A stretch of 37,631 bases of DNA from Saprospiraceae bacterium (lineage in GTDB: Bacteria > Bacteroidota > Bacteroidia > Chitinophagales > Saprospiraceae). The position numbers were made by a program, and so were the translations under genes. The stretch is from assembly GCA_043769965.1 (NCBI GenBank), contig JAYVIT010000199.1, positions 1 to 37,631 on the forward strand, written 5' to 3'. This document shows positions 29,780-37,631 of this stretch, one piece after another; the stretch's first letter is position 1, and each line of letters opens with the position of its first letter. A model generated the notes under the pieces. That model saw nothing but the letters and a program-made list of their open reading frames with translations, was not told the DNA's origin and did not search any database.

Positions 29780-32700
29780 ATGAAAAAAATCCTTGGATTA
29801 GATATTGGTACAAACTCAATTGGCTGGGCTTTCATAGAAAGCAATGCGTATGAAAATCCGGAACAATTAGAAGGTAGAATTTTAAATCTTGGCAGTAGAA
29901 TCATCCCAATGGATGGTGATGCCTTAAACAAATTTGAATCGGGTGTACCGGAGTCGAGAGCTGCAGCTCGAAGACAAGCAAGAGGAGTGAGAAGACTTAA
30001 TCAAAGATACAAATTAAGAAGAACCAGACTTTTACAAGCTTTAAAAATTTTAGGCTGGATATCCAATGATTTTCCAACAGAGTTTAAAAGACTTTCCAAG
30101 CATGATATCAATCAATTTCTTCCTTATTCAAATGAATTAATAAAAGAAGCAGAAGAGTTCTTTGAAATAAATGAACTTAAAACAACACGAGGTTTGGATT
30201 ATCATATTTCTGAAGATTGGATTATATACTACTTAAAAACAAAAGCTATTAAAAAGCAGGTAAGTTTAACAGAACTTGGAAGAATTTTATACCATTACAA
30301 TCAGAGAAGGGGATTTAAAAGCAGCAGGAAAGATTCGAAGATTGAAGAAGAAATATCCGAAGTAAAATACCCAATTTATGACAAATGGGTGGAAATTGTA
30401 AAAATTAATGACATTATAGAAAATGGCAAGGGGGACGGAAAAGATAAAGAGTTTACATTCTATAAACTTATTTGTCAAACACCAACTTTACAATTTGAGG
30501 CGATTAAAAAAAGAAAAAATCCCTTAGACTGGAAAGGGAAAGAAATTGAAATTGAGATAACGAGAAAGACTACTAAATCCGGAGATATTTCATTTACCAT
30601 TTCAGAGGTCGATCCGGCAGCGTGGGAAAGTAGAAAAAGAGCTTTAGAAAATGATATCCGGAATGAAGGCTTACCCATTTCTGAATATTATCTCAATAAC
30701 CTAAAAAAGAATCTTAAAAACGGGAATTACCGAATAAAGCAAAGAATTGTCGACCGCAAATTTTATCAGGAAGAATTTAAAGCAATTTGGGCAAAACAAT
30801 CTGAGTACTATCAAACAGAATTCACAAATAATAATATTATATTTGAAATTGCGGATACTTTCTACAAACACAACAAAGAAAAAAATAATGAACTTAAATC
30901 AAAAGATTTATTTCATATTTTCTTTAACGATATTATCTACTATCAAAGAGGATTAAAATCTCAGAAAGGATTATTAGCTAATTGCCAGTACGAAATAAAA
31001 AAATTTAAAGACAAAGATGGTATTGAACATATAGCCAGGGTAAAAGTCGCATCAAAAAGTCATCCACTTTTTCAAGAATTCCGTATTTGGCAAACTATTC
31101 AGAATCTAAAAATTATTCAAAAAGAAGATTCATCATCTGGTAAGTTAAAACTGAACATTGATGTAAGTGATCAATATCTTTTAGTAAAAAATAAAGAGCT
31201 ACTTTTTGAATTATTCGATAACTCAAAAGAAGTGAGTCATGATGCAATCCTAAGGTTATTAGGATTCAAAAAAGAGTTAATTGAAAATAGAGAAAAAACA
31301 TATAATTATAAATTGAATTATCCTAATGATAAAGACTTTCAAGGAAATGAAACTAAAAACTTGTTTCGAAGTATATTTAAGAAACATAACTTTATTGAAG
31401 AAGGTGAAAAATACATTTCAGATCCGGAAAAGCTTCATCTGCTTTGGCATATAATTTATTCATTGCCAGAAGAAGCTGAAATCATTAGTGCCTTAAATAA
31501 TAAAAAATACTTCGATTTTCCCGAATCTGTTATTTCTCACTTTTCAAAAGTTCCTGAGTTTAAAAGTCAATATGGTGCTTATTCAACGAGGGCCTTAAAC
31601 AATCTTTTGCCGTTGATGAGGATAGGTAAATATTGGCAAGCAGATAATCTATCTCCAAAAGAAAAAGGTGAAAAAGGATTCAGTGTGAAACCCACCATAA
31701 ACTTAAAAAGCAGAATTGAATCCATTTCAAACTGGGAGGTAGACCCAAATATTCCAATAAGAGTAAGAGAATTAGCTCAAATTTATAAATTGGAAAATAT
31801 TCAAGATTTTCAAGGGCTACCTACAACCTTAGCCTGTTATATTGCCTATGGAAGACATAGTGAAAAAGTTAATGAAGACAAATATGAAAGCAATGAAGAA
31901 TTGGATGTTAATAAATTAATACCCAATAATTCTTTACGAAATCCTGTAGTTGAAAAAATAATAAGAGAAACTCTCAAACTTGTGAAAGATGTATGGGCTG
32001 ATAAAGATTTAGGGAGACCCGATTACATCCATGTAGAATTGGGCCGAGAAATGAAAAACAACAATGAAGACAGAAAGAAAATTTATGAGAATAATACGAA
32101 CAACCGAATTGAAAAAGATCGTGTAGCAATTCTTTTAAAAGAACTTAAGTATCCGAATTTTAATCCAGACTCTCCTAATGATCTGGATAAATTCAAAATC
32201 TGGAAAGAAAATGGCGGAATTGAAGGTGAAGAAATATTTGATGAATTGTTTAAGAAAAATAAATCTGAATTTATCAAAGATGCAGATATCGAAAAATACA
32301 GGTTATGGGCTGAACAAGGTTATAAATCTCCTTACACGGGTCTGGCAATTCCGCTTAGTGATTTGTATGCAATTCCAAAAAAATATGAAATAGATCACAT
32401 AATCCCTAGAAGTAGATTCTACGATGATTCATTAGGAAATAAAGTAGTTATTGAGGCAGAGGTTAATGCTTTAAAAGGTAATAAATTAGCAATTCAGTTT
32501 ATCGAAGATTTCCAAAATCAGGACATTGAACTAAGCAATGGCAAAAAGATTAGAGTCTTAGCTCTTGAAAATTATAAAATAAACGTAGAAGAAATTTTTA
32601 AAAATAGAAAAAAGAAACGTCACTTAAAACTATACGAGATCCCTCTTGACTTCATTGATCGTCAAATGAATGACACAAAATACATTTCAAGAACAATAGC

Positions 32701-34582
32701 TCAATTATTAAGGCCGGTAGCAATTGGTACCGATACTGATCAGGGAGTTGTTTATACTTCTGGATCCATCACTTCCGATTTAAAAGGAAAATGGGGCTTA
32801 CATAAGTTATGGAAAGATCTCTTAAAGCCTCGTTTTGAAAGATTAGAGAATATTTTAGGAGAAGAATTAATAATTCCTAATGACAAGGATAAGAATGGAG
32901 ATTATCATTTTGCTAAAGACTATAAACGAATAGATCACAGGCATCATGCTTTAGATGCACTTGTCATAGCATGCACAACCAGAAGCCACATCAAATATTT
33001 AAATTCACTTAGCTCCTTAAGCAATGACAAGAAAGACTTTACAAGATATGAAGAATGGAAAAAGTATTTTTATCTATTAAATAAAAAGAAGCAATTAGAA
33101 GGGCTGAAAAATGGAATGCTGGAATTTGCCACTCCATGGGGAACATCTGAATCATTTTATACAGATGTAAAAGAAAAAATGGAATCTATAATCGTATCTC
33201 ATAAACAAACTGCAAAACTGATTAGTAAAGCCAGTAATAAATACTGGAAATGGAAAGAAATTGATGGAGAATGGAAAAAAGTGCTTGACACTCAACAAGC
33301 TCCAAAAGATGAAGACAAATATTGGGTGGCGGTAAGACAGTCTTTATTTGGGCAACCTTTAGGTAAAATTCATCTGGCAGAATATAAAAAAGATGTTGAA
33401 CTAAAAAAAGCTATTAAATACCAAATAGACTTTATTGTAGAACATAGATACCATTGGAATTCAGAACATTTTAGAATTGCATTGTCTTCATTAAGAAAAC
33501 AAGTTGATAAGATAATAGCTCAATTTAATAATGACGAAAAAGCAATTTTAAAATACCTAGAAAAATATCCATTAAAGGATAGTCAAAATAAGAGTATTGA
33601 AAAAATTGATCTATTAAAATTTGCAAAGTATGCCTCTAAACGGGTTAGCATAGATGAATCATTTGGTTTAGATAAAATCAATGCCTTGCCATATTCTGAA
33701 ATTGAAAAAAACTGGCTAACAAACTTACTAAGAAAACATTTGGAGGAATATGATAATCCGAAAGAAGCTTTTAAAGGCGAAGCATTGGAACAATTATTTA
33801 AAAAATCTCCGTTTCCAATAAACAAAGTAACTAGAAAAGAAAGTGGTGATAAAATTGAAATAAATAATAAATTGCTAGATGGTGATAAAGGAGTTAATCA
33901 ATATTTCATCATTGAAATATCGCAGGAGTTAGATAAAAAAACAGGAGAATTAGTTTCGAAAAGAGTTTATTCAACTCCTCCTTTTTTAGAATCCGTTAAA
34001 AGACTTGCTAAATGTTTACCATTATTTGATCCAATTCAAGAAAATAAATATATTGTTCTTTCTCCAGGGGATTTAGTTTATGTTCCTGAAATCAATGAAC
34101 AAATTAATCAAATTGATTGGTCTAATAAAAAGAACATCGCTGAAAAAACATATATTCTTAAAAGTTTTAGTAAAACACAATGTTTTTTTATTCCTTCATC
34201 CATTTCTAGCCCAATAATAGATACTATAGAACTAGGTGCAAATAATAAATCTGAAAGATCATTTGATGGTCAAATGATTAAAAATGTTTGTTTAAAAATT
34301 AAAATTGATCGCTTAGGCAATATAACTCATTATGAAGATGGCAAAAATAATCTTAATTATTCGAATGATTCTAGTATCAGTATTGCCAATGAGCCTCTTT
34401 CACCATACACTTCTATAAAAACAATTATTGTGTCTAATTCTTTTGAAGAAGCTGAAAATTCTCAAGTGGACTATTGGGCAAACCTTAGTCCGGAACAGCG
34501 GTTTAAGGATTTTTATGCTCTGATGCTACGCTTTTTTACATTTAACAAACCGGATTGGTCTAAATATAAAATCACCTTATAA
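29780..34582 (+). CDS. cas9: type II-C Cas9 endonuclease, 1600 aa, with ~85-aa non-canonical C-terminal extension
   Basis: RuvC-I GLDIGTNSIGWA (D8). Arg-rich bridge helix RAAARRQARGVRRLNQRYKLRR. RuvC-II YIHVELGRE (E753). HNH YEIDHIIPRS...N..V...N..KGN (D872/H873). RuvC-III HHALDALV (H1055-D1059). Confidence 0.95.
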   Translation: MKKILGLDIGTNSIGWAFIESNAYENPEQLEGRILNLGSRIIPMDGDALNKFESGVPESRAAARRQARGVRRLNQRYKLRRTRLLQALKILGWISNDFPTEFKRLSKHDINQFLPYSNELIKEAEEFFEINELKTTRGLDYHISEDWIIYYLKTKAIKKQVSLTELGRILYHYNQRRGFKSSRKDSKIEEEISEVKYPIYDKWVEIVKINDIIENGKGDGKDKEFTFYKLICQTPTLQFEAIKKRKNPLDWKGKEIEIEITRKTTKSGDISFTISEVDPAAWESRKRALENDIRNEGLPISEYYLNNLKKNLKNGNYRIKQRIVDRKFYQEEFKAIWAKQSEYYQTEFTNNNIIFEIADTFYKHNKEKNNELKSKDLFHIFFNDIIYYQRGLKSQKGLLANCQYEIKKFKDKDGIEHIARVKVASKSHPLFQEFRIWQTIQNLKIIQKEDSSSGKLKLNIDVSDQYLLVKNKELLFELFDNSKEVSHDAILRLLGFKKELIENREKTYNYKLNYPNDKDFQGNETKNLFRSIFKKHNFIEEGEKYISDPEKLHLLWHIIYSLPEEAEIISALNNKKYFDFPESVISHFSKVPEFKSQYGAYSTRALNNLLPLMRIGKYWQADNLSPKEKGEKGFSVKPTINLKSRIESISNWEVDPNIPIRVRELAQIYKLENIQDFQGLPTTLACYIAYGRHSEKVNEDKYESNEELDVNKLIPNNSLRNPVVEKIIRETLKLVKDVWADKDLGRPDYIHVELGREMKNNNEDRKKIYENNTNNRIEKDRVAILLKELKYPNFNPDSPNDLDKFKIWKENGGIEGEEIFDELFKKNKSEFIKDADIEKYRLWAEQGYKSPYTGLAIPLSDLYAIPKKYEIDHIIPRSRFYDDSLGNKVVIEAEVNALKGNKLAIQFIEDFQNQDIELSNGKKIRVLALENYKINVEEIFKNRKKKRHLKLYEIPLDFIDRQMNDTKYISRTIAQLLRPVAIGTDTDQGVVYTSGSITSDLKGKWGLHKLWKDLLKPRFERLENILGEELIIPNDKDKNGDYHFAKDYKRIDHRHHALDALVIACTTRSHIKYLNSLSSLSNDKKDFTRYEEWKKYFYLLNKKKQLEGLKNGMLEFATPWGTSESFYTDVKEKMESIIVSHKQTAKLISKASNKYWKWKEIDGEWKKVLDTQQAPKDEDKYWVAVRQSLFGQPLGKIHLAEYKKDVELKKAIKYQIDFIVEHRYHWNSEHFRIALSSLRKQVDKIIAQFNNDEKAILKYLEKYPLKDSQNKSIEKIDLLKFAKYASKRVSIDESFGLDKINALPYSEIEKNWLTNLLRKHLEEYDNPKEAFKGEALEQLFKKSPFPINKVTRKESGDKIEINNKLLDGDKGVNQYFIIEISQELDKKTGELVSKRVYSTPPFLESVKRLAKCLPLFDPIQENKYIVLSPGDLVYVPEINEQINQIDWSNKKNIAEKTYILKSFSKTQCFFIPSSISSPIIDTIELGANNKSERSFDGQMIKNVCLKIKIDRLGNITHYEDGKNNLNYSNDSSISIANEPLSPYTSIKTIIVSNSFEEAENSQVDYWANLSPEQRFKDFYALMLRFFTFNKPDWSKYKITL

Positions 34583-34584
34583 CT

Positions 34585-35058
34585 ATGAATTTCACACACC
34601 CTGCTCATCAAGAAATGATACTTGCGCTTCTTCAAAATGATGTTGAATTTATTTTAATTGGCGGTTACGCAGTAATTTATCATGGATATGTCAGAACCAC
34701 CGGCGATATGGATGTTTGGCTTAATCCTTCTGATGACAATAAGCAAAAACTATTGAAGGTATTTACTCTTTTAGATTTTGATCCTGAAGGTATAAAAATA
34801 ATTGAAGACATGGATTTTCAGGATGTTGTCGTATTCCACATTGGCATTGAACCGGAACGGATTGATTTTTTAAGTAAGGTGGAGGGCTTAAACTTTGAAG
34901 AAGCCTTTAGACAAAAAGAAATATTGCACATGGAGTCTTATGCAATTCCCTTCCTTCGGCTGGATGATTTAATCGCAAACAAATTATTGGTGAATCGCAA
35001 TAAAGATAAGGCTGATATTGAAAATCTGATAAAAATAAATAAACTTCGGTTTAAGTAA
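34585..35058 (+). CDS. minimal nucleotidyltransferase-fold protein (Pol-beta superfamily), non-cas gene inside the cas operon
   Basis: VEFILIGGYAVIYHGYVRTTGDMDVWL (GG-x-...-D-x-D NTase signature) and C-terminal LDDLIANKLLVNRNKDKADIENL. ATG lies 2 nt after the cas9 stop. Confidence 0.6.
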   Translation: MNFTHPAHQEMILALLQNDVEFILIGGYAVIYHGYVRTTGDMDVWLNPSDDNKQKLLKVFTLLDFDPEGIKIIEDMDFQDVVVFHIGIEPERIDFLSKVEGLNFEEAFRQKEILHMESYAIPFLRLDDLIANKLLVNRNKDKADIENLIKINKLRFK

Positions 35059-35098
35059 GCCTCCATAGTATTTATTGATAGTAACAGGTTATTAGAAA

Positions 35099-36025
35099 AT
35101 GACACCAGAAGTAACAGGATATTGGACTTTTTTTTGCAATCCATCGAAATGGCAAATTGACCGCTTTTTAGAGACCAACCCTGAATACGATAGTTATCAG
35201 ATTAATGAATGGTATAAACACGATGTTAAACTAGGACAACTTGGAATTATCCGTGTTGGTTTGGATAACAGAACAAAAGAACAACTTAGCAGCAGGTCGA
35301 AACTTAAATCAGGAATTTATGCTCTAGTTGAAATTATCGGAGAACCCGAAATAACAAAATCCAAGTCAGACTTTTATTTAATACAAGAAGAGCAAGGACA
35401 AGAAAAACTTCGTGCTCGGATTCGGTATTTAAAAAATCTTCTTAATAATCCTTTACGACTGGAGTACTTAAAAGAAAACCCGATTGTTAATAAAGACCAA
35501 TATTTAATTGGTGGCTTTCAGCGCTCTACAATGCCGTTGCGAAAAGATGCATTTGAAGAAATAATAAATTTTCTCGGAACTGATGAACAAATATTCAAAA
35601 ATATAGAAATTGAAACCGCTGATACTATTGACAAAATAGCATGTCTTGAATTGAAATATCAAAACGCTTCACCTCAAGTTAAGGAAGTGATTAGTAAAAG
35701 AATTGAAAGAGGTAAAATTTCTTCTACAATCAAAGAGCTTTACGATTACAAATGCAAAGTTTGTGAAGTAATTGGGCAAAGCCCGCTTTCATTCAAAAAA
35801 ATAAATGGCGAGTTTTATGTTGAAACACATCATATAATTCCTGTGGCTAATTTGATACAAGGTTCGTTAGGGATTTCAAACCTGATAACCGTTTGTGCAA
35901 ACCATCACAGGCAATTTCACCATGGTGACATAAAGATTCTTGAAAACACACCAGACAAATTAACACTGAAGATTGACGGACAAACTATAAAGGTTGAAAA
36001 GTATAAATTTGCCAGCCTAAAATAA
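35099..36025 (+). CDS. EVE(PUA-like)-HNH fusion nuclease, modification-dependent restriction endonuclease-like
   Basis: N-terminus GYWTFFCNPSKWQIDRF...GQLGIIRVG...SGIYALVEIIGEP resembles EVE domains. C-terminus YKCKVCE...ETHHIIP...NLITVCANHHRQFHHG is an HNH (CxxC...HH...N...CxxHH) nuclease motif. Confidence 0.7.
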   Translation: MTPEVTGYWTFFCNPSKWQIDRFLETNPEYDSYQINEWYKHDVKLGQLGIIRVGLDNRTKEQLSSRSKLKSGIYALVEIIGEPEITKSKSDFYLIQEEQGQEKLRARIRYLKNLLNNPLRLEYLKENPIVNKDQYLIGGFQRSTMPLRKDAFEEIINFLGTDEQIFKNIEIETADTIDKIACLELKYQNASPQVKEVISKRIERGKISSTIKELYDYKCKVCEVIGQSPLSFKKINGEFYVETHHIIPVANLIQGSLGISNLITVCANHHRQFHHGDIKILENTPDKLTLKIDGQTIKVEKYKFASLK

Positions 36026-36149
36026 CAAATGACAATAAAGGAGTTCACCCGAACACTTCAAAACTTTATTTTATTGGCAAATAATTTGCTGTGAATATTT
36101 TAACCTCCTTGGAAACTCAATCTTGGAATATTGATCCTTATCATAAAGC

Positions 36150-37058
36150 ATGATTAAAAAGACCTTATATTTTGGCAATCCGGCTTATCTGTCTGTAAAA
36201 GATGAACAACTGATTGTAAAAGATCCTGAGGCCGTTTCATCAGGAGATAATGTAAAAGCGAGCATTCCAATAGAAGATATCGGCTTGGTAGTACTTGACC
36301 ATCAAAGAGTCACAGTCACTCATACATTATTGGTAAAATTGATAGAAAACAATGCCGCGATTATTACCTGCAATGATGCACATCTACCAATCTCCCTGAC
36401 ATTACCGCTTGCTTACAATGACACCTTTAGTGAAAAAGTAAAATATCAACTGGAAGCCTCAGAACCATTGAAGAAACAGCTTTGGCGACAAACAATCATG
36501 GCTAAACTCAACAATCAATCAAAAGTGTTAAGCCTATTGGGAATCGGAGCCATTGAAATAGAAAAGATGATGATGCGGGTTGGGAGCGGAGATCCAGAAA
36601 ACTATGAAGCCCAGGCAGCCGCTATTTATTGGGATAGAATATTAGATAAATACAATGTAACAAGAGGTCGTTTTGACGGACATCCGAATCATTTTTTTAA
36701 TTACGGCTATGCCATATTAAGATCCATCATTGCCAGAAGCCTGGTAGGAAGCGGATGTCTTCCGGTTTTAGGTATTCATCACACTAACAAATACAATCCT
36801 TATTGTCTGGCTGATGATATTATGGAGCCATATAGACCAATTATAGATCTTATGATTTGTAAGTATCTATCCACTCAATCAGAAATATCTGAAAATCTTA
36901 CCAAACAGGACAAAGCACATTTGCTTACCATTCCGGTAATTGATGTAATCATTGCCGGAAAATCCAGCCCTCTCATGGTAGGATCACAAAGGACTACCGC
37001 GAGTCTGGTAAAATGCTATCAAGGCAGTGAAAGAAAACTATTATATCCAATGCTTTAA
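36150..37058 (+). CDS. cas1: CRISPR-associated endonuclease Cas1 (type II)
   Basis: NYGYAILRS, LGIHHTNKYNPYCLADDIMEPYRP and overall type II Cas1 layout. The stop overlaps the cas2 start (TAATG). Confidence 0.9.
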   Translation: MIKKTLYFGNPAYLSVKDEQLIVKDPEAVSSGDNVKASIPIEDIGLVVLDHQRVTVTHTLLVKLIENNAAIITCNDAHLPISLTLPLAYNDTFSEKVKYQLEASEPLKKQLWRQTIMAKLNNQSKVLSLLGIGAIEIEKMMMRVGSGDPENYEAQAAAIYWDRILDKYNVTRGRFDGHPNHFFNYGYAILRSIIARSLVGSGCLPVLGIHHTNKYNPYCLADDIMEPYRPIIDLMICKYLSTQSEISENLTKQDKAHLLTIPVIDVIIAGKSSPLMVGSQRTTASLVKCYQGSERKLLYPML

Positions 37059-37393
37059 TGCTTGACCGGCTAAATAAATATAAAATCATGTGGGTATTCG
37101 TACATTTTGATTTGCCTACCGAGACCAAGAAGGACAAAAAGAATTATACACAGTTCCGTAAGTTCTTGATCAAAGATGGTTTTAATATGATCCAGTATAG
37201 CATCTATGCAAGACATTGCAGCTCGCGTGAAAATGCGGAAGTACATAAGAAGCGGGTCAAAAAATATTTACCACCGTTTGGAAATGTTATTGTTTTTGAA
37301 ATAACAGATGCCCAATTCGGAAGGATGGAATTCTTTAATGGTGTAAAGCCTCAGGATGCTCCCTTAATGCATGTACAACTTGAAATGTTTTAG
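37058..37393 (+). CDS. cas2: CRISPR-associated endoribonuclease Cas2
   Basis: MWVFVHFDLPTETKKDKKNYTQFRKFLIKDGFNMIQYSIYARHC pattern typical of type II Cas2. Confidence 0.85.
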   Translation: MLDRLNKYKIMWVFVHFDLPTETKKDKKNYTQFRKFLIKDGFNMIQYSIYARHCSSRENAEVHKKRVKKYLPPFGNVIVFEITDAQFGRMEFFNGVKPQDAPLMHVQLEMF

Positions 37394-37502: not shown

Positions 37503-37631
37503 GTTGTTACAAATCTAATCAATTCAAAGAACGAAAGCAAATCACAACCTCCCTTGTTAGGGGTAGTCTTAATAAATGTTGTTACAAATCTAATCAATTC
37601 AAAGAACGAAAGCAAATCACAACACAAGCCG
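37503..37631 (-). CRISPR. CRISPR array (two full 46-nt repeats, one 29-nt spacer, start of a second spacer), truncated by the window end; predicted to be transcribed on the minus strand
   Basis: Identical repeats gttgttacaaatctaatcaattcaaagaacgaaagcaaatcacaac at 37503-37548 and 37578-37623 (75-nt period). Boundaries could shift by up to 2 nt because 'at' precedes both copies. The reverse complement starts GTTGTGATTTGCTTTC, the usual Bacteroidota II-C orientation. Confidence 0.9.

Follow-up and report, generated by a model that had tools for sequence, protein, structure and literature searches.

A predicted EVE-HNH modification-dependent nuclease gene between cas9 and cas1 in a Saprospiraceae type II-C locus

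The EVE-HNH gene and its surroundings

The window studied here is the whole stretch of 37,631 nucleotides (nt) that makes up one contig (JAYVIT010000199.1, C199) of a Saprospiraceae metagenome-assembled genome (GCA_043769965.1) that is 72% complete. It carries a CRISPR-Cas locus, assigned to type II-C because csn2 and cas4 genes are absent, and within this locus a gene for a predicted protein that joins an EVE domain to an HNH nuclease domain (EVE-HNH). The gene starts with ATG at 35099 and extends to 36025 on the plus strand as an open reading frame (ORF) of 308 amino acids with no internal stops or frameshifts; the strand opposite this interval contains many stops. The locus comprises the following features:

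29780–34582, plus strand: cas9 of type II-C, 1600 amino acids (TIGR01865, 1e-121; RuvC_III and HNH_4 domains)
34585–35058, plus strand: DUF6036 minimal nucleotidyltransferase gene, the upstream neighbour of EVE-HNH (Pfam DUF6036, 8.1e-7)
35099–36025, plus strand: EVE-HNH gene (ORF; Pfam EVE and HNH over cut-offs; AlphaFold2 model with a mean predicted local distance difference test score, pLDDT, of 88.6; 259 homologues)
36150–37058, plus strand: cas1 (Pfam Cas1, 9.5e-22; PADLOC Cas1_II, 5e-103)
37058–37393, plus strand: cas2 (Pfam Cas2, 1e-20; PADLOC Cas2_II, 3e-45)
37503–37623, no strand assigned: start of the CRISPR array, with identical 46-nt repeats at 37503–37548 and 37578–37623 (75-nt period), the array being cut by the contig end

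The EVE-HNH gene is placed physically within the row of cas genes, between cas9 with the adjoining DUF6036 gene and the block formed by cas1, cas2 and the CRISPR array. An earlier sequence-only reading had described it as embedded in a CRISPR-Cas9 locus, and the flanking cas9, cas1, cas2 and repeats bear this description out. With a GC fraction of 0.32–0.34, compared with 0.26–0.35 for cas9 and 0.35–0.40 for cas1, the gene is not set apart as foreign by its base composition, and no flanking repeats that would delimit its insertion were found. The spacer at 37549–37575 gave no exact match among viral contigs, and the 72%-complete genome yielded no further copy of the 46-nt repeat.

The distances between the genes are 2 nt from cas9 to DUF6036, 40 nt from DUF6036 to EVE-HNH and 124 nt from EVE-HNH to cas1. 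No plus-strand terminators were found from cas9 through cas1, nor was a Bacteroidota -7 motif found in front of EVE-HNH. Transcription probably reads through from cas9 into the gene, and the two would hence be expressed together.

An EVE sensor with an McrA-type nuclease

Both halves of the EVE plus HNH architecture named in the sequence-only reading were recognized by Pfam over its cut-offs: EVE at residues 8–157 (28.9 bits, cut-off 23), HNH_2 at residues 229–278 (25.4 bits, cut-off 21) and HNH at residues 241–275 (24.5 bits, cut-off 21.4). The protein is divided as follows:

35114–35578, plus strand: EVE (PUA-like) sensor domain, residues ~6–160
35579–35743, plus strand: helical linker, residues ~161–215, with an invariant IERG motif (residues 202–205) and model helices at 177–186, 192–204 and 206–214
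35744–36022, plus strand: HNH nuclease domain with a C-C-C-H zinc site, residues ~216–308 (Pfam HNH_2 and HNH)

An AlphaFold2 model built from an alignment of 25 relatives (A1) was compared with known structures using Foldseek and VIA-align. The top matches were solved EVE domains (2ar1, 2eve, 1zce, 1wmm and human THYN1, 5j3e), with Z scores of 11.5–13.3 and superpositions of ~131–139 residues at a root mean square deviation of ~3 Å, whereas YTH and ASCH domains reached a Z of only ~9. At the level of the model, the N-terminal domain is confirmed as having the EVE fold that had been read from the letters. Six residues of this domain (W9, F11, P15, R52, G54 and Y74) are invariant in the 25 relatives, and Y93, which is tyrosine or tryptophan in 24 of the 25, aligns with Y82 of 2eve, a residue equated in the VcaM4I paper with the base-stacking W82 of that enzyme (PMC7897488). 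The base-flipping pocket of VcaM4I is formed by the stacking residues P24, W82 and Y130 and the wedge residue Q128 (PMC7897488). When two copies were modelled together as a homodimer, the prediction scored 0.34 against a mark of 0.42 and is counted neither for nor against a dimer.

The nuclease motif had been judged intact from the sequence, and comparison with the family agrees: H244, H245, N261, H270 and H274 do not vary among the 25 family members, nor do the zinc ligands C219, C222, C266 and H269. Alignment with McrA suggests that H245 is the general base, that H244, H270 and H274 are metal ligands and that N261 is the structural asparagine. When the family profile was searched against the sequences of the PDB, EcoKMcrA (6.5e-9) and TagI (3.3e-5) were matched. 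The C-terminal half was also modelled alone (A2; pLDDT 87.3), and its best matches were all type IV restriction enzymes, namely ScoMcrA (Z 8.2), TagI (7.7) and EcoKMcrA (7.7); Cap5, a phage HNH protein and PtuB of Septu and retron systems came next, and VcaM4I reached a Z of only 5.0. The linker aligns with the helices that precede the HNH domain in TagI, and it accompanies the HNH module in relatives with other N-termini. The PADLOC profile mREase_IV gave a weak match (7.5e-5). Sequence and model together place the nuclease module within the McrA/TagI/ScoMcrA clade. EcoKMcrA, TagI and ScoMcrA (PDB 6ghc, 6ghs and 5zmm) resemble the predicted protein in the linker and the HNH domain, with the same HH...N...H...H catalytic pattern; they differ in the sensor, which is NEco in McrA, SRA in TagI and SBD plus SRA in ScoMcrA, and EVE here.

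The characterised modification-dependent restriction endonucleases with an EVE-HNH architecture are VcaM4I, TspA15I and CmeDI (PDB 6yex; PMC6765204, PMC7897488), and the sequence-only reading had assigned the gene to their family. The likeness is one of plan. The predicted protein shares with them an N-terminal EVE domain, a helical linker, a C-terminal HNH domain, a length of about 300 amino acids and its occurrence as a single gene without a methylase, and with VcaM4I, probably, a stacking aromatic (W82 there, Y93 here). VcaM4I (6yex) was moreover the sole structure that aligned across both domains (Z 11.1, 223 residues, 14% identity). Family membership did not survive. In structural alignments the identity to VcaM4I is 14–16%, compared with the 46–50% that TspA15I, VcaM4I and CmeDI share with one another, and neither phmmer nor profile searches recovered 6yex among the PDB sequences, even at E≤10. 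The active sites also differ: VcaM4I uses H224-N241-D250-D254, and a serine precedes its catalytic histidine (PMC7897488); the protein described here has the HH-N-H-H pattern with a C-C-C-H zinc site. We therefore rejected membership of the VcaM4I family on the sequence searches, the active site and the low nuclease Z score. Sequence and structural models indicate a separate family that has the architecture of VcaM4I, with an EVE sensor joined to a nuclease of the McrA clade.

Genomic contexts and the relation to Cas9

A word-indexed search detected 259 homologues at E≤1e-3, the nearest being 72–74% identical and of the same length, and an exhaustive HMMER search returned 1422 clusters at E≤1e-3, 130 of them at E≤1e-30. 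Organisms named as sources belong to Bacteroidota, Bacillus, Peribacillus, Desulfurobacterium, Fuchsiella and Clostridium, among others, and many are Alphaproteobacteria. Using an alignment-based search, we gathered 80 homologue loci from species-representative genomes. Within 8 kb of EVE-HNH, none of the 80 contained relatives of cas9, cas1, cas2 or DUF6036, and CRISPR-like arrays were found at none of 83 homologue loci, compared with 8 of 8 positive-control cas loci. The closest homologues (66–73% identical) lie in non-cas contexts, and no cas genes surround L102 and L103, the two loci whose contexts were covered among the 72–74% identical homologues from metagenomes. There is no conserved neighbour either, no neighbour family being common to more than 3 of 45 full-length loci; sampled neighbours include McrBC with an AAA protein, a type I HsdR, a PLD-helicase and a YhcG nuclease, and a Chitinophagales homologue that is 66% identical (L040) simply lies beside housekeeping genes, rpiB and rpsF. 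Among the 35 other genomes of the genus, a single one has a full-length copy, in a 481-amino-acid open frame on a contig separate from its type II cas1. A Pfam EVE search at whole-genome scale missed the window's own gene and is too insensitive to count other EVE copies. No copies were found in 50,697 phage records, and in plasmids we found the linker-HNH module only, joined to other N-termini without Pfam annotation. The pattern suggests a mobile single-gene defence module made of exchangeable sensor and nuclease parts rather than a CRISPR-linked family.

The site at which the gene lies was compared across 37 junctions between cas9 and cas1: that of this window, those of 8 type II-C loci from within the genus or order, and 28 selected class-wide on the similarity of their Cas1. 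At least one ORF lies between cas9 and cas1 in 17 of these 37 Bacteroidia loci, and EVE-HNH in this window only. In one other genome (G020), 58 nt separate DUF6036 from cas1; the corresponding place in this window holds ~1.03 kb with EVE-HNH. Two loci of the same genus (L106 and L107) have a Cas1 59–72% identical and a Cas2 70–81% identical to those of the window, but a Cas9 only 33–38% identical. Since cas1 and cas2 are kept while cas9 has diverged, the junction would also be a recombination seam, and these identities suggest that effector and adaptation modules are shuffled there. The junction resembles a hot spot for cargo or a seam of recombination, and we found no paper describing such a hot spot between cas9 and cas1. 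One genome flagged as unpublished (G153) was counted in one tally only, and no claim is built on it.

We consider it likely that EVE-HNH is a type IV restriction enzyme, dependent on modification, that works alone and is encoded by a mobile gene which came to lie in this hot spot, and that its pairing with Cas9 is incidental. By analogy with VcaM4I, TagI and McrA, the EVE domain would scan DNA and flip a modified base into a hydrophobic pocket, in which Y93, close to the invariant P15, would probably provide one stacking face. Binding of the base would release or position the McrA-type HNH domain, tethered through the helical linker, and this domain would cleave nearby DNA using one metal ion and the histidines assigned above, with N261 and the zinc site as structural elements. 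Its default target would be 5-methylcytosine or 5-hydroxymethylcytosine (5hmC), by analogy only with VcaM4I, TspA15I and CmeDI (PMC6765204), and its presumed role would be anti-phage defence. The host would need no partner methylase because its own DNA would lack the mark, and no cognate methyltransferase gene adjoins EVE-HNH, whose neighbours are DUF6036 and cas1. The gene would have been inserted between these two, in a junction that often holds foreign cargo, and its placement within the cas operon is most likely incidental. A layered defence, in which Cas9 would read the sequence and EVE-HNH the modification with no dedicated molecular coupling between them, is plausible but would be incidental as well, bringing the ordinary additive benefit of neighbours in a defence island. 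The type IV assignment given by the sequence-only reading remains, by analogy, the best one.

Several points weigh against this interpretation. Modification dependence in this family is proposed from architecture and analogy, the EVE sequence match is modest, and a single pocket residue has been mapped, from Y93 to W82 of VcaM4I by way of 2eve. EVE domains are also known in proteins with non-defence or RNA-related roles. A search of the 72%-complete genome for Dcm-type C5 methylases (PF00145) found none, but with the genome incomplete this negative does not establish the absence of a cytosine methylase. Finally, a gene that lies within the operon and has no recognisable promoter of its own is also consistent with a selected functional link with Cas9.

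Such a link would make the protein a dedicated CRISPR accessory, co-expressed with Cas9, that destroys modified phage DNA to which Cas9 binds poorly and whose cleavage ends may feed acquisition by Cas1-Cas2. The arrangement in one row on one strand, with short gaps, no terminator and no -7 motif ahead of the gene, is consistent with this, and restriction cleavage is reported to boost type II spacer acquisition. Type II effectors are reportedly impaired by glucosyl-5hmC (Vlot 2018, as cited in PMC7641849). Bell, Wolf and Koonin (2020, PMC7641849) had already proposed in general terms that modified phages which escape CRISPR are covered by EVE restriction enzymes, and the complementation of Cas9 suggested by the sequence-only reading is biologically reasonable. 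The comparative data lend it no support, however: none of the 83 homologue loci is near cas genes or arrays, the single type II-C locus with EVE-HNH among the 37 is the one described here, the closest homologues lie elsewhere and the slot is filled by unrelated cargo in other genomes. Auxiliary genes of CRISPR-cas loci, such as toxin-antitoxin genes, are likewise non-cas genes within a cas row (Altae-Tran 2023, PMC10910872; bioRxiv 10.1101/270033), but those accepted as CRISPR-linked recur beside cas genes, which the EVE-HNH family does not. We regard a dedicated accessory role as improbable.

A function outside defence is also unlikely in our judgement, whether as a selfish homing-type HNH endonuclease or as a protein that reads modified RNA or host DNA in some housekeeping or regulatory process. 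Selfishness is common among HNH genes, and both the patchy distribution and the insertion between unrelated genes fit mobility. EVE domains, in turn, occur in many contexts other than restriction (PMC7641849). Against this, the nuclease module is nearest to the type IV enzymes McrA, TagI and ScoMcrA in both sequence and structure, several homologues adjoin McrBC, HsdR or other restriction genes, the 50,697 phage records yielded no copy, and the combination of a sensor with a nuclease matches characterised modification-dependent enzymes (PMC6765204, PMC7897488). A little less probable than a dedicated accessory role is the broader idea that the nuclease was captured as a working arm of the type II-C system, co-transcribed with cas9 and cutting modified phage DNA with which Cas9 copes poorly, its DNA ends priming Cas1-Cas2 to take spacers from such phages; the cas9–cas1 junction of Bacteroidia would then be no junkyard but a docking site, kept by selection, for helper modules that can be exchanged.

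The DUF6036 gene, adjacent on the same strand at 40 nt, could be thought to form a two-gene cassette with EVE-HNH, inserted together as one module (e.g. toxin-antitoxin or sensor-effector). DUF6036 follows cas9 directly without EVE-HNH in G020 (46% identity, 2-nt gap), L123 and L129, however, the 80 EVE-HNH loci lack a DUF6036 homologue within 8 kb, and EVE-HNH has no conserved neighbour. These distributions are independent and therefore point to separate arrivals; the cassette, largely refuted by them, was rejected as very improbable. Least probable of all is that the gene is a decaying or inactive remnant, as its single occurrence in a junk-prone slot might suggest, given its full length (308 amino acids, compared with 307 in relatives), the presence of each of the 40 residues that are invariant in the family, with the whole catalytic and zinc set among them, and its freedom from frameshifts and internal stops.

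If active, the stand-alone restriction enzyme that we favour would give a first handle on an uncharacterised EVE-HNH subfamily of ~130 clusters at 50% identity, which spans Bacteroidota, Bacillota, Alphaproteobacteria, Aquificota and others, and the union of an EVE sensor with an McrA-type nuclease could supply epigenetic tools with a novel modification specificity. The place of the gene in the cas operon would be a tidy natural case of two defence layers under one promoter, incidental according to the comparative data. A more general point, relevant to annotation, is that almost half of the Bacteroidia type II-C loci sampled have foreign cargo in the cas9–cas1 junction, which cautions against assigning function from adjacency.

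Junction cargo and further family forms

The genes found in the cas9–cas1 junctions belong to different families and are listed here by genome or locus, with coordinates within the locus where given:

this window, G020, L123 and L129: DUF6036
G029: HicB alone
G033: HicA and HicB
G060: 72-amino-acid ORF and DUF2283
G039 and L145: HIRAN-domain proteins
L124 (1236–1859, minus strand), L127 (893–1486, plus strand), L129 (845–1477, plus strand), L138 (765–1385, plus strand) and L142 (2429–3088, minus strand): REP-associated tyrosine-transposase-like (RAYT-like) proteins, ~210 amino acids
L137: DUF6155
L143: AAA ATPase
L131: unannotated protein of 301 amino acids

The junction itself spans 34583–36149 in the window, 8768–9221 in L106, 2766–3302 in L107, 3085–3963 in L108, 8080–8545 in L110 and 8015–8499 in L111.

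The RAYT-like proteins are 37–66% identical to one another, and their genes lie directly upstream of cas1 in 5 of the 28 loci sampled across the class. Those of L124, L138 and L142 matched NCBIfam NF047646 at 2e-15 to 4e-18, which is below the cut-off of that model, and gave a weak Pfam Y1_Tnp match; those of L127 and L129 were assigned through their 59–66% identity to the L124 protein. Cas9 descends from IS200/IS605 elements, and the recurrence of a Y1 transposase-like gene beside cas9 is curious in that light. HIRAN proteins fill the junction in two unrelated genomes, with 291 amino acids in one (L108, 3085–3960, minus strand) and 154 in the other (L145, 958–1419, plus strand). HIRAN domains bind DNA 3' ends, and a role of these proteins in adaptation or repair is conceivable.

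Within the EVE-HNH family, the linker and HNH module (~residues 170–305, 40–55% identical) was found fused to other N-termini in the following proteins of other bacteria:

L048, 7155–8423
L049, 7323–8402
L052, 7245–8414
L053, 7287–8339
L054, 7368–8426
L067, 7035–8402
L072, 6645–8438

These N-termini are 220–500 amino acids long, have no Pfam match and are candidates for new modification-sensor domains. The family also includes longer forms of 392–484 amino acids with an extra region N-terminal to EVE (P0068, P0080, P0108 and P0111, alignment A1 columns 1–190; G021, contig C12, 7300–8214). This extra region exists in two versions, one in Bacillus and the other in Flavobacteriia, and some members match PF26345.

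One further sequence feature concerns the boundary between EVE-HNH and the adaptation genes:

36004–36011, plus strand: TAAATTTG, a match to the Bacteroidota -7 promoter element (TAnnTTTG), in the last codons of EVE-HNH and 139 nt upstream of the cas1 ATG

It is the sole plus-strand TAnnTTTG between 30838 and 36004, with a count across the whole window at chance level, and is a weak candidate for an internal promoter of cas1 and cas2. If it were functional, a promoter for the adaptation genes would have arrived with the inserted EVE-HNH gene or been preserved by it.

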